The notes under the pieces were generated by a model. The model had not been told where the DNA came from. It saw nothing but the letters and a program-made list of their open reading frames with translations, and ran no database searches. Below, piece by piece: positions 36,898-61,573 of a stretch of DNA of 64,000 nucleotides; the stretch's first letter is position 1, and the number at the start of each line of letters is the position of its first letter. The stretch comes from an uncultured Gemmataceae bacterium. Its GTDB lineage: Bacteria > Planctomycetota > Planctomycetia > Gemmatales > Gemmataceae. The stretch spans positions 1,056,001 through 1,120,000 of the forward strand of contig CAVVPN010000011.1 in the NCBI GenBank assembly GCA_963750165.1, in the 5' to 3' direction. Both the position numbers and the translations under genes were made by a program.

Positions 36898-36925
36898 AGG
36901 TAGGTATCCAGAGGTAGGTATCCAG
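36898..36925. repeat. Tandem 14-bp direct repeat; candidate integrase arm-type sites
   Basis: aggtaggtatccag occurs twice in tandem in non-coding DNA at the distal end of the integrase-bearing element. Confidence 0.55.
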
Positions 36926-36971
36926 CAACCACACCCAGCCCGCGCCCACGATGGGGGCCACGCCGCCCCCG

Positions 36972-37724
36972 TTACGCGCCGTCTACCCCGCGCCGCCGGT
37001 CGCGGAACGTCGGGATACCCAGCTTACACCGCTTCTGCATGACGGCCTGCGGCGCCCGCCCCAACATGCGGGCCACCTCCTCATCCGGCAGCGTGCCGAG
37101 CAGCGCCACCTGCTCGGCGGTCCAAAGCCGGCTCGTGGGGTTCGGGATGCGCAGCCCCTCCCGATTCTGCCGCACCGCATCCGGCGTGCGGCCGGTGCGC
37201 CTCGCCGCCTCCGAGTCGGGCAGCATGCCAAGCAGCGCCACGTCGGCCGCAGGCCAGGGGTGCTCGTGGTAGCCCGGCTCCAGGTAGTTGCCCAGCCCCA
37301 ACTCGATGCTGGTACGCCGGCGCCGCTCGCGCTCCTCCTCGGTCCACTCCCGGGCCTGCGTCGCCGCGCCGGCTGCCTCCCACACCGCCTGGTAAAGCCG
37401 GCGACTGCCCTCGGGGTCCGCCCTGGCCACGCCCAGCGCCTTGCGCCAGCGCCAGACGACGCCCTCGCTCACGCCCCACCAGTGCATGACGGCGGCGGCC
37501 GACTCGTGCCGCACGGCGCGGGCCAACTCCTCGTCGAGCAGGAGGCCGGACCCGCCGCCGGGCGAATCGACGGCGCGGCAGCGCGGCCAGGGGATGCGGG
37601 CATCGGTCCAGCTGGTGATGACCACGGTGCAATCACGGAGTAAGCAGGTGGCGCGGTCGCCCCTGTTCAGTGGCGGCGCCTGGTAGGGGCCGAACAGCAG
37701 TCGGACGCGGTCGTGCTGGGTCAC
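36972..37724 (-). CDS. Hypothetical protein with HTH-like W..ED.ALLG.LPD.E.A...GR repeats
   Basis: Two repeats (WPAADVALLGMLPDSEAARRTGR and WTAEQVALLGTLPDEEVARMLGR) plus an HTH-like WWGVS...VWRWRKALGV segment. Confidence 0.7.
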   Translation of the reverse strand: MTQHDRVRLLFGPYQAPPLNRGDRATCLLRDCTVVITSWTDARIPWPRCRAVDSPGGGSGLLLDEELARAVRHESAAAVMHWWGVSEGVVWRWRKALGVARADPEGSRRLYQAVWEAAGAATQAREWTEEERERRRRTSIELGLGNYLEPGYHEHPWPAADVALLGMLPDSEAARRTGRTPDAVRQNREGLRIPNPTSRLWTAEQVALLGTLPDEEVARMLGRAPQAVMQKRCKLGIPTFRDRRRGVDGA

Positions 37725-37776
37725 AAGCACCTCTTGGCGGCCACTGGCAACAACCGCACCACGGGAGCCGCTCTCG

Positions 37777-38184
37777 TCAACTAAGAGGAGCAATGATTCG
37801 CTCCCACTTCTCAAGGAATTCCGGCGCCTCGTACTTTGGAGGGTCGAGCCAGTACGCTTGCTTGCTGCCCACTCCGAAGGCTACCGCTCGCTCCACGACC
37901 TCCCCGCGGGCGAGGATGAAGCATTCGGGCTTGTCCTTCTGGATATGGCGGCAGACAACCAGGAAGTCCGCGATGAGCGTTGCGAGGTTCTTCCCCAGCC
38001 CCACGGGGTTGCGCTTCGAGAGGGCTTTCACCTGGACGGTGATTGTCGCCGTTGCGTCCTGGTTGTAGGCGACGATGTCCACGCCACGAGCGTTTCTTGA
38101 CGTGGGCATGACGTTCCAGCCGAGCCGCGACAGCCGGTAACAGACGTAGTACAAACCGATATTGCCGACGGTCTGGTGGTTCAC
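37777..38184 (-). CDS. Small PD-(D/E)XK-type endonuclease
   Basis: G.IG...V...L...GWNV.......GVDIVA.......VQVKA. Confidence 0.75.
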   Translation of the reverse strand: MNHQTVGNIGLYYVCYRLSRLGWNVMPTSRNARGVDIVAYNQDATATITVQVKALSKRNPVGLGKNLATLIADFLVVCRHIQKDKPECFILARGEVVERAVAFGVGSKQAYWLDPPKYEAPEFLEKWERIIAPLS

Positions 38185-38408: not shown

Positions 38409-39557
38409 TCAGCTGTGGTCCCCTGGTTCGGCGGGCACTTTGTCCCAGAACGTCTCCTTCACCCGATCGATGAGGCAGAACACATGCCCAGGATCGTCCT
38501 GCCTGGTGCGGCCACTCAGCCCGCTCACCCATCGGTCGGGGATGCTCCCTTTCCCGTGCAACGCGCCCAGGATCGCACCTACAATCGCGGCGATCGTGTC
38601 GTTGTCGCGGGTATCGAGGACCGAAACCCTAACCGCCTCCTCGAAACTGTTGCCATGCTTCATGAGCACAAACAAAACTGACGGAAGCGTTTCAAACAGA
38701 TGCGGCCCCGACCCCCACCCGCCACCGTGGGGGCTGCACACGTCCCGCACGGATCGGCCCGCCGCGAATGCCCGCTTAACGTGCCCGTTGACGAAGTCTG
38801 CGAACTGCCCGTTGAACCCGGTGAGGAGTGGTCGCGGGTCCGACTCTGGGGGACACACCGCCCGATCACAGAGTTGCGAGAAGACGCGCAGGAACTCGTC
38901 GGCCCACCACTCCGCAGGCGGCGGCGCAGTCATCCCCAGACACTGCCACATCAGGTTGACGAGCGCGATGCAGGCAGCTGTCGAGACGGAACTGTTGTGC
39001 GTGATGCGCCCGCAAAGAGCCGCGTCAATCCAGAGGTCTGCCGACGGGGATCGTAGGTAGGGGCTGATAATGGGCGCGATCCTCATGACCGCGCCGTTGC
39101 GGATCGGTTCGGGGACTCGCGTGGCCCACTCCCACCACGGCCCACTCGGTCTGGACTTGGCGTTCTCGCGGAACAGTCGCACGATTCTGCCAATGCCGGT
39201 GATGTGCTCCTTCGGGTCAGCGAAAGTACGTGCGACGTTGGCGGGCTGGAACTGGCTGTCGCGGAGAATGACCTCCAGAGCCCAAAAGGACAGCTGCGTG
39301 TCGTCGGATGGGCCGTTCTCACCAGGCAGGTAGTTGAGTGGGGTCGGATACCGGGACCGATACTCCCAGCCACGGACTCCTTCCGTCGGCAAGCCGAGCG
39401 CGTCCCCGATGGCAATGCCGAGCAGCATCCCCTCAACCTTGCTCCAAGTCGCGGTTGCCGGCAGCGGCTGCGGAGTCTCCTGCAAAATGGGGCCGTCGAG
39501 CAAATCGAGCAGGCTCTGTGCGCGAAGGGTGTTGAAGAGATCGCGATTGGCAGACAT
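38409..39557 (-). CDS. ADP-ribosylglycohydrolase (DraG/ARH family)
   Basis: G.AIGDALG, SDDTQ, NGAVMRIAP, THN, DNDTIAAIVGA. Confidence 0.9.
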   Translation of the reverse strand: MSANRDLFNTLRAQSLLDLLDGPILQETPQPLPATATWSKVEGMLLGIAIGDALGLPTEGVRGWEYRSRYPTPLNYLPGENGPSDDTQLSFWALEVILRDSQFQPANVARTFADPKEHITGIGRIVRLFRENAKSRPSGPWWEWATRVPEPIRNGAVMRIAPIISPYLRSPSADLWIDAALCGRITHNSSVSTAACIALVNLMWQCLGMTAPPPAEWWADEFLRVFSQLCDRAVCPPESDPRPLLTGFNGQFADFVNGHVKRAFAAGRSVRDVCSPHGGGWGSGPHLFETLPSVLFVLMKHGNSFEEAVRVSVLDTRDNDTIAAIVGAILGALHGKGSIPDRWVSGLSGRTRQDDPGHVFCLIDRVKETFWDKVPAEPGDHS

Positions 39558-39676: not shown

Positions 39677-42600
39677 TCACTCCAGCCGCAGTTCCTTGGC
39701 CACTTCCCCAAGAATCTCGTTCAGCCTTGTCACTATTTCAGACGGAAGCGGCTTCACCCCGCCCACCTCGATGCGGAATCGCATCCGCACTTCATGGCCG
39801 ACGGCGACCCTGGCTAATTCGCCCACTTGATCGGCCAGGTCCTGCACCTGGGCCGCCTTGAGGTCAGCCTCCGCTGCCACTACGCCCGGCCTCTTCTCTA
39901 CCACCGGCGGCGCCACGACGATCGGCGGCTGGATCACGGGCGGCGGCTTGCCAGGCAGGGAAAGCCGCACGCCGGACGCCCCCGCGAACTCGCACGGCCA
40001 GGGGCCGCTGTCCACCGCCCACTCCAGCACCCTGGCCCGCAGGGCCGAGTCGATGGCCGTGCGGACGGACGGCCAGGGCAGCGTGCCGCCCGCCTTCCGC
40101 GACAGGGCGTCAGCCACGGCCGCCGCGGTCGTCGCCCCGTCCCGCCATGCTTCCGCCAGCTGGTCAGGCAGAATGCCGGCCACGGGGATCGCGGTCGGCG
40201 GCTGACGCAGGCGCGCGTCCTCGGCAATCACGCCGGGGGGCACGGCCTCGCTCCACAGACTGGCCTGGCCCGCGACCAGCCAGAGGTGTCCGGTTTGCAC
40301 CGCCTCCCCGACCGCCTTCTCGACGACCACGCGGTCTGCCTTGGGGATGGTCATCGGCTCGTCATAGCCCTCGCGGGGAATCTGGGCGACGTGGTCGCCG
40401 GCGAAGTAGGCGAACAGGGCACCGACGGCCAACTCGTCCCCGGCCCACAGGCCCGGCAATGCCTGCGGCAGCAGCAGTGACGCCGGCAGGGCGGCCAGCT
40501 CAGCGGCCTCCGCCAGCACCACCTCCAGGCCGGGGTCACGCAAGGCCGCTTCGTCAGGTTCCTGCCGCCAAAAGGTGCAGGCCGTGCGGTCGGGAGCCAG
40601 GCAGCGCAGCACGAAGAAGCCCTCCCTCGCTCCCTGGACCAAGGTGTCGAGAATCTCCTTCCGCCGCAGCATCTTTGGCAGGTGCGGGAACTGGGCGAAC
40701 GCCCCCACGAGGTCTTTGACCCGGCGGCTCGTCTCGCCGGCCCGCCACAGGTTGAACGGCCCCTCGGGGAGCAGGGCGTCGGCACTGACTGCCGTGTCCT
40801 GAATCCGCGACCGCGTGTCCGCCTTGATCTGCCCGAACAGCGGCTCGGCCGGGCTCACCGTCAGCTTGAACGCCTGGGCCTCGTTCTTCTCCGACACCAC
40901 CACCACGACGCCGAACATCAGCAGCACCGACTCGGGCACCTTCTTCCTGGTCGAGTCCAGGCTGGTGGCCAGCGTGCCTGCCCTCAGCGGGTCGAGGTCT
41001 TGGCCCTTGAGCTGGTGCTGAACCTCCTCCCAGCCCAGGTAGTCGCGGATGCGGCCGCGGGCCACCTCCAGCCCCTCGCGCGACGGCACCACCAGCACCA
41101 CCGCGTTGCGGTAGACCCGTGGCCGGTCGGCCGCCGTCGTCTCGTCGAGGAACCGCCTGGCCTCCGCACCTGGGCTCCCCGAGGCGGACACGGCCTTCGG
41201 CCCCAGCACGGCGAAGTGGAAGTCGCCGTCGTCCTCGATGTCCTTGGGCCGCTCGGGCAGGACGTGGACCTTCGCACCCGCTTCCTTGGCCCCGGCCGTC
41301 AGGCTCTTCAGCTTCTGTACCTCGGCCAGCAGCTTGGCCTCGATCAGGTCGGGCGAGACCCGCGTGCAGGCGTCGTGGTGCATCTGCGTCAGGTTCGGCC
41401 GCGAGCCCAGCCGCCAGACCTTGGGCAGCGGCTTTGGCCCGCCTGCGGCCTCCGCGGCCGCCAGCTCCGCGTCGTCGAGGAACCACGACACGCCGGCCCA
41501 GCGGGCCAGTTCCTTCTCCAACTCGATGCGGTCAGGCCGCGTCGGCCCGACGACCAACTGCAGGTCGCGGAGCGACGCCTTCTGGCCGATGGGCTGGCTG
41601 TGCAGGAAGGTGGCAAAGACGGCCTGCTCCAGTTCGCGGTAGTGCAGGCCGGGGGATTCGTATTGTAGCTCGCGGGCCTTGGTCAGCTCGCCTTCCAGGA
41701 TCTGCGTCCACTGTTGCTGCTTGCCCTCGTACTCCTCGGTCGCGGCCACGTTAGCCAGTTCGCGGGCCGCCTCCGACAGCCCCTCTCGCTTCGGCTCGCC
41801 CAGGAACAGGTTGGCGGAGAGCAGCGGGCAGGCGTCCCACCGCTCGGCGTCCCGCAGGCCCAGGGCGAAGGTGCGGAGGATGCCGCGAGTCCTCTGGAAG
41901 CCTTCCAGCTGCGTCCACTTCGTGTAGAAGACCTCGGTCAGGTCGGGGTGGAACGGGTAGCTGGCCAGGAAGCGGTTCTCGGCCGCCTTACCCTCGCGGC
42001 GGGTCTGCTCGTCCAGGTCGGTGATGCCTTTCAGGGCCGCGACGACGTGCGGCCGAAACGCCTCCCGGTCGCGGATCGAGTCGGGCGTGAAGAACCGCCG
42101 TCTGAGCACCTCGGCCACGTCCTCCTTCAGCACCGGCTGCACGCCCTCCTCACGCTCGCGGCGGAAGATGGCGTACAACTCGCCGGTCAGCTCCTTTCCC
42201 AGCGTGTCGCTCTTGTGCGGGTCGGTCGCCAGCAATGAGGCGACGATGGCACAGCTATCGACCTTGGTGGCCGCCTGTGTCAGATACTGGAAGAAGTTGA
42301 TCAGGCGGCCTCGCCAGACGGGGTCGAGGCCGACCTTCTCGCGGACGTACATCAAGGTCTCGTCGATGAGTAGCAGCGTGGCCAGTCCCTGGCGGGCGGG
42401 CCGGGCCAGCAGATCGACGAGCAGCGGTTCGGCGGGGGCGGAGTCGCGTTCGGCGTCCTGTCCCTCGGGGTGCAGGTGTCGCAGCCCCTCGACGCCGGCC
42501 AGCTGGAAGGCCAGTACGCTCCACGGATTCTTGAGCCATCGCGGATCGCCGGCCGGCCCCCTCACCTCCATGCCCTTCTCGGCGTCCAGCTTGTCGAACG

Positions 42601-43006
42601 GCAGCACGGCTACCAGGGTGCGTGGCGGTGTGCGACCGATGTGCTGCAAGAACTCCTGCACTGCCGGCAAGTCGGGCAGGTTCGCGGGGTCGCGGACGAG
42701 GTGGTACAGCGCGATCAGCGTGTGGGTCTTGCCCCCGCCGTAGGTCAGCTCCAGCTGGCGGATGGCCTTGTCGTTCTTGCCGGCCAGGCGGCTGACCACG
42801 TCCTTTGCCAGCTCCCGCAGGTTAAACGTCGGGTAGGTCAGGGCGAAGAACTCTTTCGGGTCGGCGTAGACCTTGCGGGCCTTGCCCATGACCACGTCGT
42901 AAAGGTCGGCGGCGAAAACTGCCAACGACATCTCGCCCGACCGCAGGTCGTCGCGTAGCTGGACCACTTTGTGCCAGGGCTTCCAGGGGGGCTTGCTCAT
43001 GTCCAT
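39677..43006 (-). CDS. DUF499 AAA-like ATPase
   Basis: FAADL, FF..TYPT, YGGGKTHTLIALYH (Walker A), LLLIDE (Walker B), YPFHP, FQRTRG.LR. Confidence 0.88.
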   Translation of the reverse strand: MDMSKPPWKPWHKVVQLRDDLRSGEMSLAVFAADLYDVVMGKARKVYADPKEFFALTYPTFNLRELAKDVVSRLAGKNDKAIRQLELTYGGGKTHTLIALYHLVRDPANLPDLPAVQEFLQHIGRTPPRTLVAVLPFDKLDAEKGMEVRGPAGDPRWLKNPWSVLAFQLAGVEGLRHLHPEGQDAERDSAPAEPLLVDLLARPARQGLATLLLIDETLMYVREKVGLDPVWRGRLINFFQYLTQAATKVDSCAIVASLLATDPHKSDTLGKELTGELYAIFRREREEGVQPVLKEDVAEVLRRRFFTPDSIRDREAFRPHVVAALKGITDLDEQTRREGKAAENRFLASYPFHPDLTEVFYTKWTQLEGFQRTRGILRTFALGLRDAERWDACPLLSANLFLGEPKREGLSEAARELANVAATEEYEGKQQQWTQILEGELTKARELQYESPGLHYRELEQAVFATFLHSQPIGQKASLRDLQLVVGPTRPDRIELEKELARWAGVSWFLDDAELAAAEAAGGPKPLPKVWRLGSRPNLTQMHHDACTRVSPDLIEAKLLAEVQKLKSLTAGAKEAGAKVHVLPERPKDIEDDGDFHFAVLGPKAVSASGSPGAEARRFLDETTAADRPRVYRNAVVLVVPSREGLEVARGRIRDYLGWEEVQHQLKGQDLDPLRAGTLATSLDSTRKKVPESVLLMFGVVVVVSEKNEAQAFKLTVSPAEPLFGQIKADTRSRIQDTAVSADALLPEGPFNLWRAGETSRRVKDLVGAFAQFPHLPKMLRRKEILDTLVQGAREGFFVLRCLAPDRTACTFWRQEPDEAALRDPGLEVVLAEAAELAALPASLLLPQALPGLWAGDELAVGALFAYFAGDHVAQIPREGYDEPMTIPKADRVVVEKAVGEAVQTGHLWLVAGQASLWSEAVPPGVIAEDARLRQPPTAIPVAGILPDQLAEAWRDGATTAAAVADALSRKAGGTLPWPSVRTAIDSALRARVLEWAVDSGPWPCEFAGASGVRLSLPGKPPPVIQPPIVVAPPVVEKRPGVVAAEADLKAAQVQDLADQVGELARVAVGHEVRMRFRIEVGGVKPLPSEIVTRLNEILGEVAKELRLE

Positions 43007-43041
43007 CTCCAGGAGCCGGCTGCCGGCCCTTGCTGATCTTG

Positions 43042-46000
43042 CTACTCGGGTGAGGGGACGTTTTCCTCGGGCGGTGCGAACAACTCACCGTCGAACAGGC
43101 CGGGCTGGGCCGGCTTGTCCACGCCTCGGGCCGCGACGTGGTTACTCACGCACTCCAGCAGCGACCGCTCCTCGCCGCCCCGCTCGGACAATTCGATGAG
43201 GGCTTGCAGGAGTTGGTGGAACAGGGCGTTTCGCCGCAGGCCACGGTCGTTGAGGTACTCGTCCACCTTCACGACCTCGCCGGCTTTCCACAGGTGCAGC
43301 AGGCGGTGGACCTGGTCAATGAGCGGGGCCGGTCGGCCCTCCGCATCGAAGCCCATCGTCTTGCGTTTCCGCTGCGACCAGGGCTTCAGCTTCACCTTCG
43401 AGCCCGAGCCGCCGCCCTCGTCGGCGTCGGCCTCCTCGTCATTTTCATCCTCCTCGTCGTCGGCTGCCGCCTTGCCGCCAGTGCGGAGGAGTAGATCGTG
43501 GCGGTCTACCAGGGCGGAATCGGACAGCCCGCAGGAGACGGCGTAGAGGATGCAGGCACCCGCCGGGGCGTCGCCCACGCCGAAGTCGTGGCGATGCAGC
43601 AGGTAGTAGGTCGTGATGTCGTCCAGCCCCTCAATGCGGGAGCCGTCGCCGTTGCCGGTCAGCACGCGGCCGACGACGAAGTCCACGACCAGGCGACGGA
43701 CGGCCCGCAGGAACTCGGAGACGGACATGGTCTCGCCAGGGGCGGTGGCCTTTTTGACGACGGGGTGCTTGCTGTACGCCTCCAGGGCGGGACCGGTGGC
43801 AGCCCAGACGAAGTCCGGGCCACGGATGCCCGCATCCCAGTAGTTCCGCAGTTTGGGGAGGTGGACCCACTCTTCAGATTCGTCGCCACATCGACCGTGA
43901 AGCCGGTCCCGCATCTCCTCCAGCACGCGGTTGTCCCAGCCGGGCCGGGCCGCCGCAGGCCGCTTCTTGCAGACCAGCCAGACCGAAGACGACAGGGCTG
44001 CGGACGACAGGGAGCGGACGCGGGCTGATCGCTCGGTCTGGATCGGCCAGCTACCGTCCACGACAAAGCCTGCCCGGATGATCGCCGACACAAGCGTCTC
44101 CCAGGCATCGGGGTGCTTGTGGGCAAAGACGACGACAAGACGACCGTCGGGTGCGAGAGCCCGCTGGCATGCCTGGAAGGCGTGGAACATGCCCTCCTCG
44201 TAGACACTTTTCGAGACCTTTGCATCGCCGCCATGCCGGCTGGCGTCGTCGATCAACTCACCGTCGTTCCGGGCCGCGTCCCACTTTGGCCCGAGAGGCG
44301 TCTGGAATGACTCGTCCAGTGCCGGAGCGAGCCCGTGCAGGGTGCGACGCAGCCAGAGGTAGAAGAAGTCCATCAGGTCGGAGTACGGGATGGCGTCGTA
44401 ATAGGGCGGGTCCGTCAAAATCAGGTCGTGCAGTGTCTCCGTGGACGCGATCTTGGCACTTTGGCGAACGACGTGCGGGGCAGGGGCATGTCGGCTCGCC
44501 GCAGAGAAGTGTTCCACCGCCAGACAGACCCACTCGACGGCACTGGAGTAGCCGCCGCTCGTGTCGCCGAGCGGGTTGACCTCGGCGAAGTCCCACACGA
44601 TGGGCAGGGCGAAGCGGGCGAAGGTGCCCTCGATGTTCTCCCCGTTCATGTTCCAGCGGGCGAGGTTGCTGGACTGATTGGCCAGCCGGTCCAGCATCAT
44701 CGCGAGGTAGCAACCGACGACCTCGATCCACTCAGGCGGGTATCCTGCGGCTTGCATGGCCTCGCGAGCCGCCCGGGTGTGTCTGGCGAAGGTGCCGAGG
44801 GCGAACAACTGCGACGGAGTGAAGAGGTCACGCCACCGGGTGAGCCCGTAGGTGTAGACAGTGAAGGGGGAGCCGCCACCCGTCCGGCTTCCCCCTTGCG
44901 GGATAGGCTCATTGAGAGTGCCGAACGGGATTCCCGCGAACAACTCGGGCAGTTCCTTGGCAGCCTGCTCGGACCGCACCCTCTCTGCCTCGCTCGGTGG
45001 CCTGTATTCCTTCCCATCCTTGCCGTCAACGACCACCGCGGTGAGCACACTCCCCAACCGCCCCGCCTGGCCTTCCAGGCGGATGTCCTCGCCCGTAATG
45101 ATGGTCCGGCAGCACGGGCAACTCGCCCCCGACCGCGACATCGTCCCGCCCGCGACCTGGCGGTCGTTCTCCCTCCTCTGGGCCGCATTGCCGCCGACCA
45201 CCGGGACTTCGTTCTCGATGCCGAACACTACCCCAGTCCTGTCGGCGTTGGGCTTCATGGTCAAGACGACCCGCTTCCTGTCCTTCTTGCACAGCCACCG
45301 GGTCTTGAGCAGAGGAACGGTGGCCCGGCAGTTCTTGCACGCCACCGTCCTTGCCCACAGGTACGCGACCACGGGCTTGTCGTCCACGACGGGGTAGCAG
45401 CGGGTCAAGTCCGATTGGGCCTTCTGCGAAACCCACCAGCCCCAGGCCCGGACGTGCCAGGCCAGGTCCACGTCCGGGGGCGGGAAAAGCCCTTGCTGCA
45501 CGGACTCCAGGCTCTTCTCCATTTGCCGCTTGGCCTTGACGCCGGTGCCCTTGAAGAAACCCTCCATGAACTCCCGCGACTCCAGGGCGAACTTCGGCAA
45601 CGGCCGCACCTGCCCGGCAAGTTTCTGTGGATACTCCAGGGTGCATTTCAGGATGAACCAGGCCACGGGGTTGATGTCCATCGCTGTGGCCTCACAGCCC
45701 AGCCGCATGGCCTCCAGGGGAATGGCCCCGCCGCCGGCGAAGGGGTCGAGGACGCGAGGAGCCCGGCCGCCATACGCCTTGCGGATTTCTTCACGGAACC
45801 ACGCCATGTCCGCCCCGTCCTCGCGGCCCCAGTGCAGGATGCCGCCCTTCGTCTCCTCCTTGACGACCTCGACGGTGCGGTTGCCCTGCTCCTTCTTCTC
45901 GACCGTGCGGACGATCTTGCCCCCGATCATCTCCAGCAGCCGCTGACGCTCCTCGTCGTTGCCGGGATCGGGCAGCAAGGTGGCGATCAGGGCGGCCCGA

Positions 46001-49973: not shown

Positions 49974-50363
49974 ATGTCCGACGAGAACTTCAGCGTGGAG
50001 GCTTTGGAGAAGGAATTAGCCGAATTGAACGCGCATCAAGAGAGGCAACGGCAAAACGAGCCGCGGCGCCCACTGGCCGAGTTGAAACAGGTGATCCTGG
50101 CCGCCTTGCGGGGGTTGCCGCGCGTGATGCCGCCGAATGACCGCCCGGCGCCGGACGAAGAAGACATCCTGTTCCGTGACCTGGCCAGAACCCGGCCGCC
50201 GATGGACCCGGACGCCGAAGGCGTCCAGCGACTGCCGCAGAGCGAGACGTTCGACCTGGACGACTACTACTCCCCTGAGGAGCAGGCCAAGCCCGGCTTC
50301 TTCGTCTTCGACCCCAAGGTGTTCGGCGAGGAAGACGCCGGATCGCAAGAACCACCACCATGA
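49974..50363 (+). CDS. Hypothetical acidic protein
   Basis: SD ggag precedes the ATG and the composition is protein-like. No family was recognised. Confidence 0.55.
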   Translation: MSDENFSVEALEKELAELNAHQERQRQNEPRRPLAELKQVILAALRGLPRVMPPNDRPAPDEEDILFRDLARTRPPMDPDAEGVQRLPQSETFDLDDYYSPEEQAKPGFFVFDPKVFGEEDAGSQEPPP

Positions 50364-52659: not shown

Positions 52660-53263
52660 GGTTGGCCACCTCCGCGTCGATCCAGGCGGCGTGCCAGTCG
52701 TGCAGGCCGTCGTGGTGGAAGAGGGCGATCTGCTCCCGGTTGCTGTTGGTCCGCAGGTTGGCGGACCCCTCGAAGGTCAGTTTCCGGCCGTCGGCGAAGT
52801 GCAGGCACATCACCTTGCAGTGGTTGCGGGTGGCCGCCAGGCGGCATGCGCGGGCCTGCACCAACTCCCCGTGCCCGAACTGGTACTCCTCGGGGTTCTG
52901 CCGCCGGAAAAACGAGGAGCAGAGCAGCGTGAGAGCGACCACTTTGCCGGCGTCGATCAGGCCGGCCAGTTCGTAGACGTTGCGCTTGCTGAACGCCAGC
53001 ATTGCCACCCGCAGGCGGTCGCAGCGGACGGCGAACCTGTCCAGGACGACCATGAGCAGGGCGGTCAGGTCGTATCTGCCGGTCATGATGGCGTGGAGGG
53101 ACTCGCCCGGGGCGGGCAAGTGCGGCACGATCTCCGCCGCCTCGGCCAGCATGGCGAAGCGCTTCTGCCTGTCCCGGGCAGTGAACACGCCCGGCAGGGT
53201 GTCCAGGGCGCCCGGTGCGGGCTTGCGGCCGAAGCTCGGCGGCTTGATCTTGGAGAAGTCCAT
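52637..53263 (-). CDS. Phospholipase D-like (HxK...GSxN) single-domain protein
   Basis: RNHCKV...TFEGSANLRTN..REQ. Confidence 0.72.
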   Translation of the reverse strand: MDFSKIKPPSFGRKPAPGALDTLPGVFTARDRQKRFAMLAEAAEIVPHLPAPGESLHAIMTGRYDLTALLMVVLDRFAVRCDRLRVAMLAFSKRNVYELAGLIDAGKVVALTLLCSSFFRRQNPEEYQFGHGELVQARACRLAATRNHCKVMCLHFADGRKLTFEGSANLRTNSNREQIALFHHDGLHDWHAAWIDAEVANHAGEAQG

Positions 53264-53274: not shown

Positions 53275-53427
53275 TCACGACCAGGATTGGCCGTTCTTGA
53301 ACCGGCCGGCTGGCCGCTTCTTGCCGGCGCCTTTGCCCCCACCCTTGGCGCCGCCCTTGGACTTCTTGGCGCCCTTGGCGTTGAAGCCGAAGCTGAAGTC
53401 ACCGATCTTGTCTTTGCTCTTGGCCAT
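53275..53427 (-). CDS. 50-aa Lys/Gly-rich basic peptide (absent from the ORF track)
   Basis: SD gaggag; MAKSKDKIGDFSFGFNAKGAKKSKGGAKGGGKGAGKKRPAGRFKNGQSWS*; strong GC3 codon bias. Confidence 0.75.
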   Translation of the reverse strand: MAKSKDKIGDFSFGFNAKGAKKSKGGAKGGGKGAGKKRPAGRFKNGQSWS

Positions 53428-53522: not shown

Positions 53523-53759
53523 TCAATTGCTGTCCAGTGGCGGGCGGTTCCAAACCACCGCGCACCTGTCGCCGCAGCACACCAGGAAGCACGCCAGGCA
53601 ATAGCCGTGGCGCGGGTTGTAGTTGTAGGGCGGGTCTTCGTAGGTGAGTGCTTCTCCGAACCCATCGGGGCCACAGCCCACCACGGTGTGGTGCTGAATG
53701 CCTTCATCCCGGTCGTAGGGCTCGCCACAGCACCGGCAGATCAGAATGACAGCGCTCAT
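53523..53759 (-). CDS. Small Cys-rich putative Zn-binding protein
   Basis: CRCCG...CLAC..CC...C; ggagg upstream. Confidence 0.5.
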   Translation of the reverse strand: MSAVILICRCCGEPYDRDEGIQHHTVVGCGPDGFGEALTYEDPPYNYNPRHGYCLACFLVCCGDRCAVVWNRPPLDSN

Positions 53760-53800
53760 CTCCTGGGTCCTCCAGCAGTTCATGATTTCGGGTATTCATC

Positions 53801-56800
53801 TCAGCCGCCCCAGGTCGGGGCCGTCTTCACTTCCACCTCGACGGGCACCGGGTCGATCAGGGGCGCCATCGCGTCCACCATCGCCCGCTTGAGCCAGTCG
53901 GCCACCGTCGGCGCCTGGTCCTGGTCGCACTCCACCACGATCTCGTCGTGGACCGCCAGCACCGGGAAGGCGCCCGGCACCTCGGCACGGCGTTCCCAGA
54001 GCAGTGCCAGCGCCAACTTGAGGCCGTCCGCGCCCGTCCCCTGCACCGGGGTGTTGAGTTTTTCGGTGAATCGCGCGACGCCGCAACGACGCCGGCCTGC
54101 GAGGGTGCGCGTCTCGATGGCGTTCTTACCAGTGCGGCCCGCCTGGCGGTGCCAGCGCACCAGGCCGGGGTAGGCGGCAAAGAATGCCGAGCGGTACTGC
54201 TCCGCCTGTTCCGGGGTCAGCGTCAGGCCGTAGTTGCTGAGCGCATACAACTGGAACGTCTTCGCGCCCATGCCGTACAACAAGCCAAAATTAACGGCCT
54301 TCGCCAGCTGCCGGTGCTGCTTGGTGACTTCGGTGATCCCCATGACCTTCTGCGCGGTCAAGGTGTGCAGGTCGATGCCCCGCTGGTACGCCTCCAGCAT
54401 GGCCTTGTCGCCCGACACCTTGGCGGCGATGCGCAGCTCGACCTGGCTGTAATCGGCTTTCACCAGCACCCGGCCCGGCGGCGCCGCGAAGCAGCCGCGG
54501 TACTCGGGGCCGCGGGGCAGGTTTTGAAGATTCGGCGCCTTGCAGGCCATGCGGCCGCTGTCGGCCCCCAGTTGCTGCCACCCCGCGTACACGCGGCCGT
54601 CGCCGGAGACGTGCTTGAGCCAGTCGTCGCCGTAAGTACCGGCCTTCTTGCTGGCTGCCCGGTAGTCGCGCAGGAGGGCGGCGAGCGGGTGGTCGATGCC
54701 AGCCAAGGCGTCGTCGTCCGTGCTGGTGACCGTCACGCCCAGGCTCGCAAACACTTCCTGCGCCTGCTGGGGGCTCGACCAGTTCCAGGTGCTGCCGAAG
54801 TCGAGGACTTCCGGCTTGCCCGGCGCCAGGGCGTCCATTGCCGCCGCCAGCCGCTCGGCTTCGGCCTTCGCCTGTTGCGCCATCACCTGCCACCGCACTG
54901 CATCGAACGCCACGCCGGAGCAGGCCATCCAGACCACGGGCGGCAAACAGCGGCTCTCGATGGCGGCGGCCTGTTCCAATTTCGCGCCCTTGATCTTCAC
55001 GCGCAGCGCCCGGCACAGCGGCCCCAGCACGGCCGCGTCCGTCGCCGCGTAGGCCAACTGCTCGGGGGTGAGTACCGCCCGCGACCAGTCGGACTTCTGC
55101 TCGTCCTTGTCGATGGCCTTCCCCAGTTCACGCCGCACGCACGCTTCCAGGCTGTGGAATCCCCTGGGGTGTCGCGTGCCGTATAGCAACCGCGACAAGA
55201 GCATCGTGTCGTACACCGCGCCCGGCTCGAACCCCAACTGGCGCAGGAAGGCCAGGTCGAAGTACCCGTTGTGCGTGACGAGGATGGTCTGGGACAGGGC
55301 GGCGAACAACGGTTGCGGGTCCACGGCGGCGCAGTCCACCAGGTAGGTCAGGGAGCCCTCGACCGCCTCCACGTTCACCGACAGCAGCCGCAGTCGATCT
55401 GACCGGGGGTCGAGCCCGGTGGTCTCACAGTCCAGCCCCACCAGTTCGTTATCCGCGAGGGCGGTCAGGACGGCGCTGAGCCCGTCGGCGTCCGTGACGA
55501 GCATGTAGGGGTGTCCGACACCTGGGGTTTCGGGGGGCGTTGGGGCACTGACGCTGTCCTGGTCCTGGTGGCTGGCGGGTTCATTCGCCTGTTCCTCTGT
55601 CCGACGCCCGACACTTCCGACACTTCCCTGGTCCGTCTCCGCAGGTTGTTGCCCGGCTGCCGGTTGCGAACTGTCCTGTTTCGCGCCCCTTGAAGTGTCG
55701 GACGCTGAGCCAGGCGGTGCTGTCGGTGGCGCGGACGGGTTCTCCCCGCCGTCGTCCTCGTCGTCTCCACCCGAAGTGTCGGAAGTGTCGGGCGTCGGAT
55801 ACAGTTCCACGACTTTGATATTGCTAGCCTTCTTCCCAGAAGGGGGGTCGATCCAGCGGGCCACGCCGCCGTCCACAAGGACGCTCAGGGCGGCCTCTGC
55901 GTCCTCCCTGGTCGGGTACTTCTTGCTGTTGGCGCGCTGCAGTTCGCGGACGGTGATCCGCCCCCCGCGGGCCTGGATGAACTCGACCAGGCGGCGGGTG
56001 TCGCGCTGCTCCTCCGTCTCGGCCAGCGTCATGTAAATGCGCCGGGCCTCGTTGGCGAACCAGCGGCAGAGGGTGACGCCGGCCTCGACGCTCCTGGGGC
56101 TGACCTCCCGGCGGTCATCGACCTCCAGGTGGACGCAGGTGACGACGTGGTGCAGCAGGGCGAAGCGGGCGGCGTAGGCTTCGAGCTTGCTGTACGCGGC
56201 CGCCAGTTCGCCCTCGACGGCCATCTGCTCCTTGGCCCAGGCGTTGTAGAACGCTACCCAGTTCTCCTTGGCCTGCGGGTTCATGCGCAGGACGTGGGGT
56301 TGCTTCGGCCCGGTGTCCGCGTCGAAGTCCAACTCCAGCAGCCTGGCGATCACAGTCTGGTACGCCTGCTCGGTCTCCGGGGAGACATCGGCCTCGCTCC
56401 AACTCTTTTCCACCTTGGGGGGCATGGCCGCCAGCAGGCGGGCGGGCAGGCCGGAGTCGAAGGCGTCCGCGCCCAGGGCGCGGGCCAGGACGCCGGGCTG
56501 GATGCCGCCGACGACGGACACGGCGGCGCGGTCGATGAACAGCAAGGGCCGCTCGGGGTTCTTGCGGTCGATGACCGCCGTGCCGGCCCGGAAGAACTCC
56601 AGCCAGTTGGGCAGGTCGGAGCCGCCTCCCTTGCCCTTGTAGCGCGTGAAGCTGCCCAGCCAGCCGGACAGTTCGTCCCGCGCCATGAGTACCCCCCGCG
56701 GGTTTTCCTCCAGGACCACCCCCAATTTTTCAATGGTGGTGTCGCTGACGACGACCCGTCGCAGTTTCGGCTCCGCGGGCGGCTCCTCGTTGAAGTCCTC

Positions 56801-58066
56801 GCCGGCCTTCTTCGCCTTCGCCTTGCGGGACTTGTACTCAACCAGGGCGTCCTCGTAGGCTTCCTTCTCAGACTTGAACGACTCCAGCAGCTGCTTCTGG
56901 TGGCGGAACAGGAAGCCGACTGCTTTCTGAAAAGCTGGCGTCTTGAGCGTGCCGGAGTCGCCCACGATGGCGGCCCAGATGATGCACGGCTCCTCCCAGC
57001 TGCGCTTGAGCCGGAGCGACCGGGTGTTGCTGATGGTCGAGCCCACGGCCGCCAGCACGCATAGCGCCACGTACGCCGGGTCGCAGCGCAGGGCCTGGGC
57101 GCACTCGGTGACGTAGGCGCCCAGCGGCATCGGCAGCGCCTCAACCGGGAACGGCTGGAAAGGCGGCAGCGTCCGCACCCTGATCTTGGGCTTCGACCCG
57201 GCACCGTCGTTGCCGCTCGTCAGCCCCAGCCACTGCCGCACCCTGGTCGCCACCGCGCCGCCGGCGACGCCGAGCAGCTGCACCAGGCGCGGCCAGCCGG
57301 TGACCTTCTCGCCGTCCTCCACCTTGCGCTTCGCCGGGGCGGCCTTGCCTTCGCGCATGCGGACTTCCTCGTCGCCAGCGGCCAGGGCCACGGCGCCTAC
57401 GAACCGGGAAACGCGCTCGGCGTCCCAGTGGCGGGCCAGCGCGCCGCTCAGCGCCATGGCCGCCTTGTCACGGTTGCCTTGTCTCGGCCAATGGCGGGCC
57501 AGGAGCGCGGCCGCGGCGACTTCCCCCACGGCCTTCTGCAGGTCGTCCAGCGTTACGTTTCCCGGCTCGGTGAAGGACTCCCAGGCGATCTGTTCGCCGG
57601 TGTCCTTGTGCAGGCTGGGCGGGTAGACGGTCAGACCGCCGTCGCCGCGCAGCTCGCAGAGCATGGTGCCGTCGAGGTCGAGGTACTCTTGCTGCGCCTT
57701 GGGGAACGGGCGGTCCGCCGCGTAGATGTAGTGCGACAGCGGCGACGACGGGCGCCCGAAACGCCAGCCGGTGGGCGGGAGCAGGTGCGGGGCGACGGCC
57801 CGCGTCTCGGGGACGTCGAGGTCCACGTCCAGGCGGTTGCCGCTGGGGCTGCCGTTCAGGACGCCGACATTGCGGGGTTCGTGGCGCGGGAACCGTCCGT
57901 CAAGGTCGTCCGCAGTCAAGCGCAGGTGCTGCCAGTCGGGATAGCCGGGGTCTTTGCTGCGGGGTGGCAGCGGGATCGGGGCCAGGCCGCGCTGAACGTA
58001 CAACTCTGCGGCGTCGCGGACGTCCTTGGGGAAGGCGCCGTTGCGACTCGGGGTTGCAGTTGTCAT
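53801..58066 (-). CDS. Fused replicase: Prim-Pol, DUF3987 helicase-like ATPase, 3'-5' exonuclease and family A DNA polymerase
   Basis: PIPL....K.P, NVGVL.G, DVDLD, PPS.H (Prim-Pol); FP.EALP, GDSGTLKT, RDEL, G.IQP (DUF3987); LDCETTG, HN..FD, YA..D (exonuclease); ADYSQVELR, RQLAKAVNFGLLYG, VHDE (PolA motifs A/B/C). Confidence 0.9.
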   Translation of the reverse strand: MTTATPSRNGAFPKDVRDAAELYVQRGLAPIPLPPRSKDPGYPDWQHLRLTADDLDGRFPRHEPRNVGVLNGSPSGNRLDVDLDVPETRAVAPHLLPPTGWRFGRPSSPLSHYIYAADRPFPKAQQEYLDLDGTMLCELRGDGGLTVYPPSLHKDTGEQIAWESFTEPGNVTLDDLQKAVGEVAAAALLARHWPRQGNRDKAAMALSGALARHWDAERVSRFVGAVALAAGDEEVRMREGKAAPAKRKVEDGEKVTGWPRLVQLLGVAGGAVATRVRQWLGLTSGNDGAGSKPKIRVRTLPPFQPFPVEALPMPLGAYVTECAQALRCDPAYVALCVLAAVGSTISNTRSLRLKRSWEEPCIIWAAIVGDSGTLKTPAFQKAVGFLFRHQKQLLESFKSEKEAYEDALVEYKSRKAKAKKAGEDFNEEPPAEPKLRRVVVSDTTIEKLGVVLEENPRGVLMARDELSGWLGSFTRYKGKGGGSDLPNWLEFFRAGTAVIDRKNPERPLLFIDRAAVSVVGGIQPGVLARALGADAFDSGLPARLLAAMPPKVEKSWSEADVSPETEQAYQTVIARLLELDFDADTGPKQPHVLRMNPQAKENWVAFYNAWAKEQMAVEGELAAAYSKLEAYAARFALLHHVVTCVHLEVDDRREVSPRSVEAGVTLCRWFANEARRIYMTLAETEEQRDTRRLVEFIQARGGRITVRELQRANSKKYPTREDAEAALSVLVDGGVARWIDPPSGKKASNIKVVELYPTPDTSDTSGGDDEDDGGENPSAPPTAPPGSASDTSRGAKQDSSQPAAGQQPAETDQGSVGSVGRRTEEQANEPASHQDQDSVSAPTPPETPGVGHPYMLVTDADGLSAVLTALADNELVGLDCETTGLDPRSDRLRLLSVNVEAVEGSLTYLVDCAAVDPQPLFAALSQTILVTHNGYFDLAFLRQLGFEPGAVYDTMLLSRLLYGTRHPRGFHSLEACVRRELGKAIDKDEQKSDWSRAVLTPEQLAYAATDAAVLGPLCRALRVKIKGAKLEQAAAIESRCLPPVVWMACSGVAFDAVRWQVMAQQAKAEAERLAAAMDALAPGKPEVLDFGSTWNWSSPQQAQEVFASLGVTVTSTDDDALAGIDHPLAALLRDYRAASKKAGTYGDDWLKHVSGDGRVYAGWQQLGADSGRMACKAPNLQNLPRGPEYRGCFAAPPGRVLVKADYSQVELRIAAKVSGDKAMLEAYQRGIDLHTLTAQKVMGITEVTKQHRQLAKAVNFGLLYGMGAKTFQLYALSNYGLTLTPEQAEQYRSAFFAAYPGLVRWHRQAGRTGKNAIETRTLAGRRRCGVARFTEKLNTPVQGTGADGLKLALALLWERRAEVPGAFPVLAVHDEIVVECDQDQAPTVADWLKRAMVDAMAPLIDPVPVEVEVKTAPTWGG

Positions 58067-58251
58067 GGCTGGCCCTCCGCGCAGGCCAGCCCGTCCAGAG
58101 CGCCCAATTCCGCCAACAAATCCTCGGCGCGGTCGCGATCCAGGACGGGCCTCTTCTCGTGTCCGGTCCAGTAGGAGTGCCTCAAGAGGCGCCTGGCGTC
58201 GTCTGCTCCGACAATCTCGCTCAACTCGTCAAAGTCCGGGTAATCGCTCAT
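58063..58251 (-). CDS. Small hypothetical protein
   Basis: SD ggagg; its stop overlaps the replicase start (ATGA). Confidence 0.6.
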   Translation of the reverse strand: MSDYPDFDELSEIVGADDARRLLRHSYWTGHEKRPVLDRDRAEDLLAELGALDGLACAEGQP

Positions 58252-58284
58252 AAGACGGCCCTCCATCTTTCTCGGCCGGGGCCG

Positions 58285-58653
58285 TCAGATGCCGAGTTTG
58301 TCCAACTCCGCGCCGGCGCGCTCGGCCGCCTTCAACCGCTTGCCGGGCGAACTCTGGCCCGGGGCCGATTCGCTGCTCGCCTGCGGGGTTTGAGCCTCAA
58401 GGAAACGTGCGAGGGCCATCGGGGTGCTGATGAACCGGCCGGCCAGTTTCATGGCCTCCAGCCGGACGCGGCCTCCCCCCAGAACCCTGACACCCTCCGT
58501 GACCCACCTGAAAACGCAACTGGGAGTCACGGCCTTGTCCTCTCGCGAGGGTGGCACCACTCTGGCGATCTGCCCCAGATATTTCCCGTGGCCGGCGGCA
58601 ATTTCCTCGGCCAACCGGCCGTCGGGCACGGTCGTACTCGTTAGCGCTGTCAT
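58285..58653 (-). CDS. DUF1580-like HTH protein (excisionase/AlpA-like role inferred)
   Basis: L...AR..P..R..K.V...C.FRW...GV.......RLEA...AGR..ST..AL.RF. Confidence 0.72.
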   Translation of the reverse strand: MTALTSTTVPDGRLAEEIAAGHGKYLGQIARVVPPSREDKAVTPSCVFRWVTEGVRVLGGGRVRLEAMKLAGRFISTPMALARFLEAQTPQASSESAPGQSSPGKRLKAAERAGAELDKLGI

Positions 58654-59031
58654 GTGGAACCTCGCACCTGGTCGCTCGTCTCCGCAACGCACGAGGGCGA
58701 GTGTGACACAGGCGCGCGTCCGGGAATTTCAAGGGGTTCGCGAAATAGCGAAGATGGCAAAACTATGAATGATAATGGTTTGCGGCAAAGACTGTCGAGA
58801 GACCGAGCTTCCGCAACAAATTTTTCTTGGCCGGGTTGCGCGGTGACGGGCTGGTGAATCTGAGTTTGTCCGCGGCGATGACGCCGTGCAGGTTGGGTCT
58901 GCCTGGATGACTGACCTTGAAACGGTTCTTGACGCCGCCTCTGATCGCCAGACAGAGTCGTTTAGCGGGGCTGCCTTGGATGGAAGAGAGATGGATGATT
59001 GGGCTTTGTTGCTGCTGTCCGCACAACCCGT

Positions 59032-60102
59032 TCAGGATGGCAGTATGTGGCCATCCTCGCGTTGTCGGCCAGAAAGCAGCTTCAAGGCTTTGTCAACGAA
59101 AGCTTCCGCACGCCGGGCCCGGTTACCCCAACCGAAGGCGACGTCGCAAACATTCGCCTGATTGTAAAAAATCCGCGCCGCCTTCGCGAGTGATTCGCCC
59201 GCGCCATCGAGATTCTGGGCGGCGCCGGCCACGAGCAGGTGTTGCTCCCTGGGTTTTGCAGCCAGGGTCTCTACCCTGGGCACCCGGGATGGGCGTGTCA
59301 GTCGAAAGATGTGTCGCAGCGAACCTTGCACCAGTTCCTCAATCGGCTCCGCGTTCTCAATCTCCAGTAAGAACCACATCGCGTCGTTAAGGGATGCTGC
59401 AGCCTGACGGAGCGACTTGTCCGCGGGGGAGATGCGTAGGTCTTTCTTTTTTCCAGGTTGCTTTGGCGGCGATGTCGGTTTGCCGAAGCCCGACGTGTTC
59501 ATGGAGTAGGTGCTTTCACCGCGCTTCACGTTCCGAATCTTCCTCGGTGCCTCGGGGTTCCCGTGCATCTGATCAAACTTCATTCGGATTCTCCGGACCA
59601 GCGTGTCGTGAGCGCCGCACCACGCGCCAATCTGCACGTTGGACAGTTCGTACCATTCTTCATCCCGCAACAGGGCGTCCACCGCGTATCGTACGGCCCT
59701 CAGCCGGTCGCGCGAACTCTGGTGTGCTTGTTTTTTGACGTTTACCTCGCACGCAAACGCGGCTGCGTTGAGGCGCGTGCCAGGCCGGATTTCGGCGTCA
59801 ACGTGAGGGCGGCCCGCACGGTGGTGCGCCGCCAGCCGGCGAAAGCCGTCCCCGAGCCAGTAGTTGTCCTCGGCGTCTTTGAACACGACCACTGGCTGGA
59901 GGTCGTCACCATCCAGCAGCGCATTCGCAAGCCGCTTCACGGACTCGTGGTGTATTTCCCGGACCTGCGTACTGCCCTGGGTGTTGATCCTTGAGATCGG
60001 CAACCTGATTCTGTGCGCACCGGCGGCCGTGGGCGTGTTCACCGGAATCTGTTGCCGAGCGGGCGCGCTGTTCCCGACCAGTTGCCGTTCGGGTGAGGGC
60101 AT
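59032..60102 (-). CDS. ParB/Srx N-terminal domain protein with HTH
   Basis: Q.R....V..LA..L..G....PVVVF.....WLGDGFRRLAA; SNVQIG.WCG....LV..IR. Confidence 0.72.
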   Translation of the reverse strand: MPSPERQLVGNSAPARQQIPVNTPTAAGAHRIRLPISRINTQGSTQVREIHHESVKRLANALLDGDDLQPVVVFKDAEDNYWLGDGFRRLAAHHRAGRPHVDAEIRPGTRLNAAAFACEVNVKKQAHQSSRDRLRAVRYAVDALLRDEEWYELSNVQIGAWCGAHDTLVRRIRMKFDQMHGNPEAPRKIRNVKRGESTYSMNTSGFGKPTSPPKQPGKKKDLRISPADKSLRQAAASLNDAMWFLLEIENAEPIEELVQGSLRHIFRLTRPSRVPRVETLAAKPREQHLLVAGAAQNLDGAGESLAKAARIFYNQANVCDVAFGWGNRARRAEAFVDKALKLLSGRQREDGHILPS

Positions 60103-60263
60103 AATGACTTTCCTTGCGGCTGCGTTTCTCCCCTCGGGGATACGCGGCCTCGGTCGTGGAACGGCCGACCAGGAATCAGCCGGCGCACCAACACTTCATT
60201 GTTTACCATGCGGAAAAAGGGGACAAGCCCGGGAGTGCTCCCGGGCCTGTCGCCTCGCGAGTG

Positions 60264-61573
60264 TTACCCGATCTCCCGCATGATCTCCTGCGCCTTGTTC
60301 AAGTCCCGCTCCGCGTAAATCTGCGTCGTCTCGACCCGGGTGTGCCCGAGGACGACCTTCGCGGCCTCGACGCCGTACTTCGCCCGGAGCCATGTCGCCG
60401 CCGTGTGCCGCAGCTGGAGCGGGGACCACTCCGGCACCCCTGCCGCCTTGCACGCCCGCACCACCGCTTGCCTGTAACTGTGCCGGGTGTAGCGCTCGCC
60501 GGGTGAGCGCCTGGGTTTTACCTTCCGTTTCCGGGCCAGTTGGCTCGGCTGGCGTTTGCTCTTGCGCAGCGCGGCACGTTCGGCGCGTCGTTCTTCGACA
60601 TGGGCTTTCGGGGAGAACAGGTATTCCTCGACGTTGGTGCGCAGGAACGGGCGGAGAACTTCCTGGGCCTGTGGCCCCAGGTAAATGAATCGGTCCATGC
60701 CGCGGTGGCGGTTCTTGTGCTTGAACGGCGAATAGGTCCAGACCGGGCCGGTCGTGTTCAGGTCAATGCCGCGCATGACCATCACCTCGCCGGCCCGCAT
60801 GCCGGTCAGCAGCTGCAGCCGAACCATCGCCGCGATCGGCGCCGGCATCTTCGTCAACCCCGCCTCGACGACCTCGACGGCCACGGGCTTGACGCCCTCG
60901 GCCTCCGGGGACTCGCTACGCCCCTTTTTCAGACCGGGCACAGCAGCAATGGCACGGTAGACGGTTTCAGGAACCATCTCCTCGGCGACCGCCCAGCGGA
61001 ACAGGCGGACGATGTGGCCGACGCGCTGGTTGATGACGCCGCGCAACAGCGCCTTCTCGGAGCCGAGCAGTTCGCCGGGCAGCCACTTCTCTTTCCACAG
61101 CACCTCGCAGCACTTCGCGGTCTGGCGGAAGCACTGCTCCCGGAACCAGCGCTCCAGGGTTCTCTCTTCCTCGCCCACTTTGAGCTTGAAACGGACGAGG
61201 TAGCGCCTGGAGTCGGCCATCTTCTGACGCACGGCCTTCAACTTGAGCGGGGAGAATTCCGCCGCCGGGAGCAACCCGTACAGGGCCTTGAGGGGTCGGA
61301 GCGAGAAGCGGAGGTTGTCAATCTCGTGGGTCGGGTTGCCGTCCACGTCACGGTAGTGCTGCTCGGCCCACCGCCAGAAGGCAAGGACCATCTCGTTGAT
61401 GCTGACAGATTCGGGTTGCTCGGTCGGGACGGGTTGTAGGCGCCGGCCGGCGGCGAGCCATTCAGCGATCAGCTTGTCGTAGGCCAGGCGAACGGCTTCC
61501 GGCGGGTTCTTCTGGCCGTCGGGCCAGTGGCCGAGGTAGTGGTCTTTCCCGTTGAGGGTGACCACGCCCAGCT
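60264..61573 (-). pseudogene. Tyrosine integrase with its 5' end separated by the IS21 insertion
   Basis: TGMRAGE (R), K, QLRH, LGH, TQIY; arm-binding-like VVTLNGKDHYLG begins right at the IS21 end. Confidence 0.85.

Follow-up and report, generated by a model that had tools for sequence, protein, structure and literature searches.

A capsid-less, terminase-bearing family of mobile elements in planctomycete bacteria, possibly satellites with a packaging motor of their own

Gene order of the element in the window

The window, meaning the whole stretch of 64,000 nucleotides analysed here, is C11:1,056,001-1,120,000 in the genome (G000; 9.6 Mb in 12 contigs, of which C1, C2, C3 and C11 are named below) of an uncultured Gemmataceae bacterium, and positions without a contig label are those of the window. 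It holds an integrated element whose genes lie on the minus strand in the order integrase, ParB-N-domain protein, DUF1580-type helix-turn-helix (HTH) protein, small open reading frame (ORF), fused replicase, Lys/Gly-rich ORF, PLD nuclease, protein resembling the small terminase subunit (TerS), large terminase subunit (TerL), HmaA/HmaB/HmaC, ADP-ribosylglycohydrolase and two small genes. The existence of a maintained family of such elements has good comparative support from the sequences, and its representative in the window is damaged. The gene set named in the preliminary description (integrase, ParB-like, HTH, replicase, TerS-like and TerL genes, then defence cargo) was located in full on the minus strand; the PLD nuclease and the Lys/Gly-rich ORF had been overlooked there, and the DNA polymerase described as the element's own is present as the C-terminal part of the fused replicase, not as a separate gene.

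The tyrosine integrase gene (60264-61573; PF00589, phrog_1) is about 20 codons short at its 5' end and keeps the C-terminal catalytic motifs, and its product has 73% identity to two sibling integrases adjoining a tRNA-Gly(CCC) attachment (att) core. The slot after it is variable and is here taken by the ParB-N-domain protein (59032-60102; phrog_1033 at E 8e-9, PF02195 at an E of 1e-4 that is below the cut-off). The HTH protein (58285-58653), in the position of AlpA or an excisionase, was assigned by BLASTP (E 2e-16) to a member of PF07618 (DUF1580); it had no Pfam match of its own, AlpA included, and it is one of five homologues within the genome. Then follow a small ORF of 62-67 aa (58063-58266) and the fused replicase of 1,421 aa (53801-58066), in which Prim-Pol (archaeo-eukaryotic primase, AEP), DUF3987, a linker, a 3'-5' exonuclease and a family A polymerase (PolA) were recognised by Pfam (PF09250 and PF13148) and by motifs. 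Between the replicase and the packaging genes stand a doubtful Cys-rich ORF of 86 aa (53523-53783), which was not called by the gene caller, and the Lys/Gly-rich ORF of 50 aa (53275-53427), which in elements and phages alike recurs upstream of the PLD gene. The small ORF and the Cys-rich ORF are both without a family match.

No portal, capsid, tail or lysis gene was found after terL in the window by Pfam, PHROG and six-frame searches, and the six-frame searches with 17 portal queries and 14 capsid, protease and head queries gave no match over 66 kb. There is also no room for head genes, the gaps of at least 100 bp between called genes in 36.8-61.6 kb being all shorter than 490 bp. The absence of portal and capsid claimed in the preliminary description was thus confirmed.

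Packaging module and its family in the host order

The 208-aa PLD-superfamily nuclease (52637-53263; HxK...GSxN) was assigned by structure prediction, structure search and invariant residues. An AlphaFold check of the small ORFs had been proposed earlier; when it was run, the protein showed the PLD fold (predicted local distance difference test, pLDDT, of 91), with Foldseek matches to SauUSI, NgoAVII and Nuc at E 4e-6 to 1e-5. The residues H148, K150, S167 and N169 are invariant across 116 sequences. In phage-inducible chromosomal islands of the capsid-forming kind (cf-PICIs) the corresponding slot is held by an HNH nuclease, and by this analogy the PLD nuclease is likely a terminase accessory.

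The helical TerS-like protein of 166 aa (52159-52659) was assigned by synteny and by fusion to a phage TerL, without a profile match: at 57 of 64 loci its gene comes immediately after the PLD gene, members of the same family precede TerL and portal in the phage contigs L301, L303 and L371, and in the phage L190 the family is fused to TerL (hhalign 99.6%). The protein had no Pfam or PHROG match, modelling from the single sequence came out poorly (pLDDT 70), a Foldseek search of viral structures had no match at E<=0.001, and the prediction of a four-copy complex scored 0.17.

The terL gene (50462-52158; phrog_2 at E 1.9e-8) is frameshifted and lies in two pieces (51574-52158 and 50462-51754), and Walker A, Walker B, coupling and three nuclease Asp motifs are present. 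Among 7,997 scored candidates, 322 relatives of this TerL were obtained; the family has no sequence relative in PDB and is missed by Pfam and NCBIfam. The closest clade (P0002-4 and P0006-8) is well supported, with 65-69% identity. For the genomic context of this clade, IMG/VR gave no locus with the window protein as query and matches of 52% identity at best with the clade alignment as query, a sample of 401 genomes of the phylum gave distant matches only, and cluster look-ups gave none. In the TerL tree the label 'nohit' means without a match to the 17 portal queries, and relatives so labelled were not counted as portal-less.

PLD, terS and terL stand in this order before a PHROG-confirmed portal in the phage contigs L190, L301, L303 and L371, and of the 16 IMG/VR loci that contain the PLD gene, a PHROG-confirmed portal follows in 7, most of the others being short. 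The three genes therefore form a real packaging module of phage origin.

The PLD gene was used as a marker for the census of the family. It was found at 71 places in 39 of the 267 genomes of the host order; the element belongs to a common kind of mobile island of planctomycete bacteria. Of these places, 64 were examined (4 in this genome and 60 fetched); six weak or partial matches were left out, as was one locus whose contig stops right behind terL. TerL was found at 41 of the 64 loci (40 by profiles, and L331). When TerL was required to have at least 300 aa and at least 4 kb was required after it, 27 loci were obtained, and a portal was found only in L363, which lacks this TerS family. All 26 loci that carry both TerS and TerL and have at least 4 kb downstream, from 16 genomes, are portal-less, and 18 of these TerLs look intact. 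The full phage L360, also without this TerS, ends too early, and its longer IMG/VR copy L304 has a portal. As a control, the portal was found within 4 kb at 30 of 34 phage loci having the TerL family of the window and a found portal. The downstream genes were compared with PHROGs through one representative per family, and head genes were seen only in full-phage loci, apart from a kelch-repeat gene in L309, which matches a 'virion structural protein' family, and tape-measure-like matches in L322 and L353. The latter genes (L353:8465-9730 and L322:769-1692; PHROG E 1e-8) stand after terS or terL in capsid-less elements and recall EPIPs.

Eight elements with TerS and TerL are enclosed by tRNA-derived direct repeats of 22-46 bp: L332 (8.8 kb), L335 (9.7 kb), L339 (9.9 kb), L315 (10.4 kb), L336 (11.2 kb), L342 (15.7 kb), L323 (16.1 kb) and a sibling in this genome (21.2 kb, the last 5 kb of which were seen as a gene list only). 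Five genomes are represented, one of them by four of the eight elements. Nei-Gojobori counting for the closest pairs of TerL gave ratios of non-synonymous to synonymous substitution (dN/dS) of about 0.15-0.55. In the split TerL family phrog_7579 the Walker and nuclease motifs are kept at a median identity of 43%. The TerLs of the elements keep their catalytic motifs under purifying selection. At least five TerL types occur in the slot (best PHROGs 7579, 38, 979 and 5989, plus that of the window), and closely related PLD genes adjoin different TerL types or none. The syntenic-locus comparison proposed earlier thus came out for a recurring capsid-less family and not for a deletion remnant.

Replicase, ends and cargo of the window copy

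The polymerase part of the replicase had its best PDB matches to 8JRB and the apicoplast Prex (E 1e-75, vs 1e-44 for Klenow). It fits PolA cluster 8 (Aquificae/Prex-like), being closest to the Aquificae and apicoplast enzymes in the PDB sequence search, and its proofreading exonuclease motifs are kept. Cluster 8 is the PolA of the Aquificae/apicoplast type, for which AEP primase fusions are known in Planctomycetota, and in the text available of the paper describing it a prokaryotic role is not given (PMC10201439). The element shares the polymerase type of those enzymes and differs in that the gene is here carried by integrative elements, with DUF3987 and an internal inverted repeat; from Prex it differs in its primase, which is Prim-Pol (AEP) here and TOPRIM there. 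Among the best 5,000 records, no cultured phage covers 80% of the fused replicase.

Matches to the PolA half were obtained at 67 places, spread over 46 of the 267 genomes of the host order and often lying in open frames of 1,400-1,500 aa. Forty loci were fetched, three more were already in the set, and 36 have at least 5 kb downstream. These 36 have a TerS-like gene in 17 cases, TerL in 2, and neither the PLD gene nor a portal in any, and none of the 40 PolA-marked loci had a portal or capsid match. PolA and TerL were found together at six genome loci, including L309, L311, L322 and the window copy, with three TerL types, and the elements with TerS and TerL mostly use other primases than the PolA fusion. 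The combination of complete terminase and PolA, which the preliminary description suggested as the mark of a satellite class, was accordingly rejected as a class trait. Seven of the PolA elements (L421, L422, L426, L435, L438, L444 and L451) end in a ParB-methylase, a second HTH TerS-like family and an ORF of about 105 aa, the start of which resembles, by eye, the first motif of the TerL family of the window.

An inverted repeat (55595-55804; a 32-nt repeat with 9-bp iterated units) lies in the linker of the replicase and is likely a replication origin. Inverted repeats of at least 20 nt, differing in sequence, were found at the same place of the replicase gene in 35 of 42 homologous loci (window, L412-L451, L309, L311, L322 and L352, including two duplicate pairs), vs 2 and 0 in two control windows. 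Because the repeat is kept at one position while its sequence diverges, and has iterated units, an internal candidate origin is suggested.

Damage was seen at the integrase end. A copy of an IS21-family insertion sequence (istA/istB; PF00665, PF01695; minus strand), lying outside the element, starts at 61,573 and runs through 64,000 on to about 64,329, cutting about 20 codons off the integrase start. No target duplication was seen at its flanks, and the missing 5' end was not found elsewhere. The copy has 98% identity to that on C1, the two differing by eight small indels and one 131-bp gap, and in comparison with C1 its istB and istA (62072-63955) carry frameshifts. The tRNA-Gly(CCC) att core beside the two sibling integrases measures 44-46 bp. 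It is absent from the window, where no tRNA, Rfam match or long direct repeat was found either. Five copies of it lie on C11 (C11:20744, 924300, 968831, 1032810 and 1054031), and the intact tRNA is on C1:387555; the C11 copies are read from their positions as a tandem array of related elements, parted from the tRNA by rearrangement or assembly. The nearest one is 1.9 kb left of the window start, and the element could span about 63 kb if it were the last unit of the array.

In terL a single frameshift near 51,760 separates Walker A from Walker B, and the two pieces of the gene, in two frames, have 69-72% identity to the intact 575-aa P0002. In the assembly background 3 of 52 genes are frameshifted (61.5 kb aligned); one frameshift in about 22 kb is expected by chance, and the break may be real or an assembly error. 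With integrase start and att lost to IS21, and with terL frameshifted unless the assembly is in error, the window copy is probably immobile.

The other end had been placed at 36,898, which did not hold. The block 35,692-37,744 has 94% identity over 2,062 bp to C11:1530451-1532504, the distal part of a sibling element, and contains infC (36256-36804, plus strand) and a repeat-HTH protein (36972-37724, minus strand). As a chromosomal boundary infC was ruled out by this sibling block and by a separate infC with rpmI/rplT at C11:227 kb; the distal edge therefore lies left of 36,898, and the recognisable element has at least 26 kb. The extra infC (IF-3) copies of the window and of G000:C11:1531015-1531563 are near-identical cargo on mobile elements.

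The cargo after terL consists mainly of an Hma defence system (39677-49487), with PADLOC best matches to HmaA (46140-49487; SNF2 helicase-nuclease, 1e-153, with a C-terminal nuclease-type domain PF13020), HmaB (43042-46143; DUF1156 methylase, 5e-120) and HmaC (39677-43006; DUF499 ATPase, 2e-68). All three components of the described Hma system (PMC11232893) are thus present in order, here predicted from genes and on a terminase-bearing element. Beyond them are the ADP-ribosylglycohydrolase (38409-39557; PF03747) and a 135-aa protein (37777-38184; phrog_5018 and phrog_29029) which is PD-(D/E)xK-like by eye, both on the minus strand. Between terL and HmaA, on the plus strand, lies an orphan ORF of 129 aa (49974-50363) without a family match. 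Several members of the family have defence genes after terL or terS, namely Hma in the window, and DrmD, type I and III restriction-modification and Cas3/Cas8 elsewhere; in a sibling in this genome that shares the 3' end of this terL at 86% nucleotide identity, drmD comes 0.1 kb further on. Packaging from an integrated phage-inducible chromosomal island (PICI) is reported to move downstream defence genes (PMC12829572), and by analogy packaging from an integrated copy of the element could do the same. A further sibling (L407, G000:C11:962313-968780) has integrase, HTH, primase and a phrog_38 TerL followed directly by drmD, without the PLD-TerS pair.

Relation to known satellites and weighing of the readings

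PICIs and cf-PICIs are told apart by TerL in the SatelliteFinder model (PMC10085698). The gene order of the element follows the convention of PICIs. The element resembles the PICIs described there in the integrase at one end, the primase-replicase, the small terminase and the accessory cargo after terS, in having no tail or holin gene, and in the size range of its att-bounded members; the direct repeats expected around a PICI are lost in the window copy and present around eight relatives. Where PICIs have a regulator of AlpA/MerR type, the element has the DUF1580-type HTH protein as a putative one. It differs in having its own TerL, whereas a PICI uses that of its helper, in having the PLD nuclease and, in the window copy, PolA, and in having no capsid-morphogenesis gene, which is facultative in PICIs. 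The string 'planctomyc' does not occur in the main text of that paper. With the cf-PICI EcCIEDL933 (10.1101/2022.09.08.507074) the element shares a nuclease-terS-terL module ending a PICI-type backbone, in the same order as hnh-terS-terL; unlike cf-PICIs it has no capsid, protease, portal or connectors, it has PLD instead of HNH, and its TerLs are of at least five types mixed with phage genes, whereas those of cf-PICIs form three deep clades. By gene content the element stands outside PICIs on account of its TerL, and outside cf-PICIs and prophages on account of the head genes that it lacks.

A published precedent is NitKor-E1 of Ca. Nitrosopumilus koreensis AR1 (PMC6563490), which is likewise integrated and has a tyrosine integrase, terS and terL, defence-type genes and no other virion genes. 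NitKor-E1 is a single archaeal element and was read as a relic, whereas the present family counts dozens, with att-bounded intact members and TerL under selection. Some VEIMEs (PMC9618062) also carry a small terminase and a DNA polymerase and no virion genes; they differ in having been shown inside virions and in that their TerL is presumed to come from the helper. A portal-less family with TerS and TerL is undescribed in the available text of the accounts of VEIMEs (PMC9618062), EPIPs (PMC12822802) and SRCEs (10.1101/2025.02.15.638363) and of the review PMC11389934, and a literature search, with supplements and most subscription papers outside its scope, found no description of such a family.

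With modest confidence we favour the reading that the element is a PICI-like satellite which would bring its own packaging motor, fill helper procapsids and carry defence cargo. Judging from the comparisons above, intact relatives probably spread by packing their DNA into empty heads that other phages have made. On helper infection or induction, the DUF1580 HTH protein and the integrase would excise the element, and the fused primase-helicase-like-PolA protein would start its replication at the inverted repeat within the replicase gene. TerS would then mark the element DNA, and TerL, perhaps with the PLD nuclease, would cut it and pump it through the portal of the helper procapsid, the defence cargo after terL travelling along and paying for maintenance. 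Refilling of the terL slot from different phage lineages would change the helper used. A wider claim, to which we give slightly less than an even chance, is that a satellite family widespread in planctomycetes steals only heads and tails and has its own complete and interchangeable packaging set of PLD-TerS-TerL, that TerL swaps between phage lineages change the helper, that TerL is sometimes split into an ATPase and several nuclease paralogues, and that some members replicate by a Prex-type one-protein primase-helicase-polymerase from an internal origin.

Several observations weigh against a satellite with its own motor. The helper search in this genome gave three head-gene clusters (C3:2.49 Mb, C11:2.25-2.27 Mb and C2), and the phrog_113 portal type, the companion of the TerL family of the window, is in none of them. 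TerL is optional, 16 PLD loci with at least 4 kb downstream being TerS-only (L331, which has TerL, removed), and it is rare among the PolA loci, as given above. Among the 26 portal-less TerLs 8 look broken, the window copy included, part of which may be assembly error. In the TerL type that the elements most often have, ATPase and nuclease are encoded by separate genes, an unusual arrangement for a motor that translocates DNA, and two to four divergent nuclease copies stand in tandem after one ATPase gene at L415:9878-13051, L423:102-2882 and L313:7450-9999. Finally, the PLD genes of the elements are mixed with those of phages that have a portal, so that they form no deep lineage of their own, unlike cf-PICIs.

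Some of these points would be met by an ordinary PICI-type satellite in which only TerS matters and terL is a passenger, captured with terS from phages, retained for some time and later lost. The TerS-only loci, the excess of TerS-like genes over TerL at the PolA loci (17/36 vs 2/36), the near-identical PLD genes beside different TerL types or none (L350/L351, L306/L307 and L320/L322) and the broken or remnant terL of both the window copy and the C11:1.55-Mb sibling argue for it. We consider it unlikely in view of the retention of TerL in 41 of the 64 loci, the dN/dS well below 1 with motifs conserved over deep divergence in portal-less elements, and the conserved split architecture, which is not seen in the portal-linked homologue at C3:2.49 Mb and implies long residence. 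The split form with its tandem nuclease paralogues and the position of the terminase at the head of the defence slot speak for repurposed terminase genes, which would obstruct or poison DNA packaging by invading phages, as defence or as interference with the helper, or would cleave the replication concatemers of the element itself, without pumping DNA; the PLE satellite is known to manipulate the packaging motor of its helper (PMC11417361). Since the ATPase motifs are intact in the full-length types and phage gene order and TerS are retained, such repurposing seems decidedly unlikely.

A recently decayed prophage, with its head and tail genes deleted or replaced by a defence island, was the alternative named in the preliminary description, to be recognised by portals after terL in close relatives. 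This was half borne out, as the relatives nearest in TerL whose surroundings are known (L189, L193/L194, L109 and L190) are planctomycete-type phages that have portal and head genes; the window copy is also damaged, and NitKor-E1 was so read (PMC6563490). It was contradicted by the family with TerS and TerL, in which 26 of 26 informative members are portal-less and eight are att-bounded at 8.8-21 kb, by the lack of any portal or capsid match at the 40 PolA loci, by the sibling with the same terL 3' end and drmD directly beyond, and by the PICI-like content upstream, with only 4-6 genes between int and terS. At the family level decay is thereby largely refuted, and for the element it is very improbable.

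TerL is treated as a marker of tailed viruses and was stated as not found in non-viral elements (PMC6563490); small att-bounded, portal-less islands with a selected TerL challenge this use and mislead prophage callers. If the favoured reading of a satellite with its own motor is true, motor replacement would be a new hijacking strategy between PICIs and cf-PICIs, and the wider family claimed above would be the missing intermediate between PICIs, with TerS only, and cf-PICIs, with the whole head. The natural TerS/TerL swaps would be useful for studying how motors recognise DNA and portals, the AEP-fused cluster-8 PolAs gain a genomic role as element replicases with a candidate internal origin, PLD nucleases are pointed to as likely terminase accessories, and the intact members of 9-11 kb make the packaging question testable.

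The three head-gene clusters differ in content. The one at G000:C3:2481500-2494800 (L404) is a head-only cluster of TerL, HK97-type portal, protease, capsid and adaptor, and its neighbourhood has neither an integrase nor replication genes nor clear tail genes. At G000:C2:17400-34900 (L409), integrase, DUF3987 primase, TerS (phrog_83), S49 protease and HK97-type capsid were found, and TerL and portal were not seen. The third, at G000:C11:2246000-2271000 (L403), is a 24-kb element between tRNA clusters with recombinase, primase-like, TerS-like, head protease, major capsid and adaptor homologues; TerL and portal were not detected in it, and it forms a mirror image of the window element.

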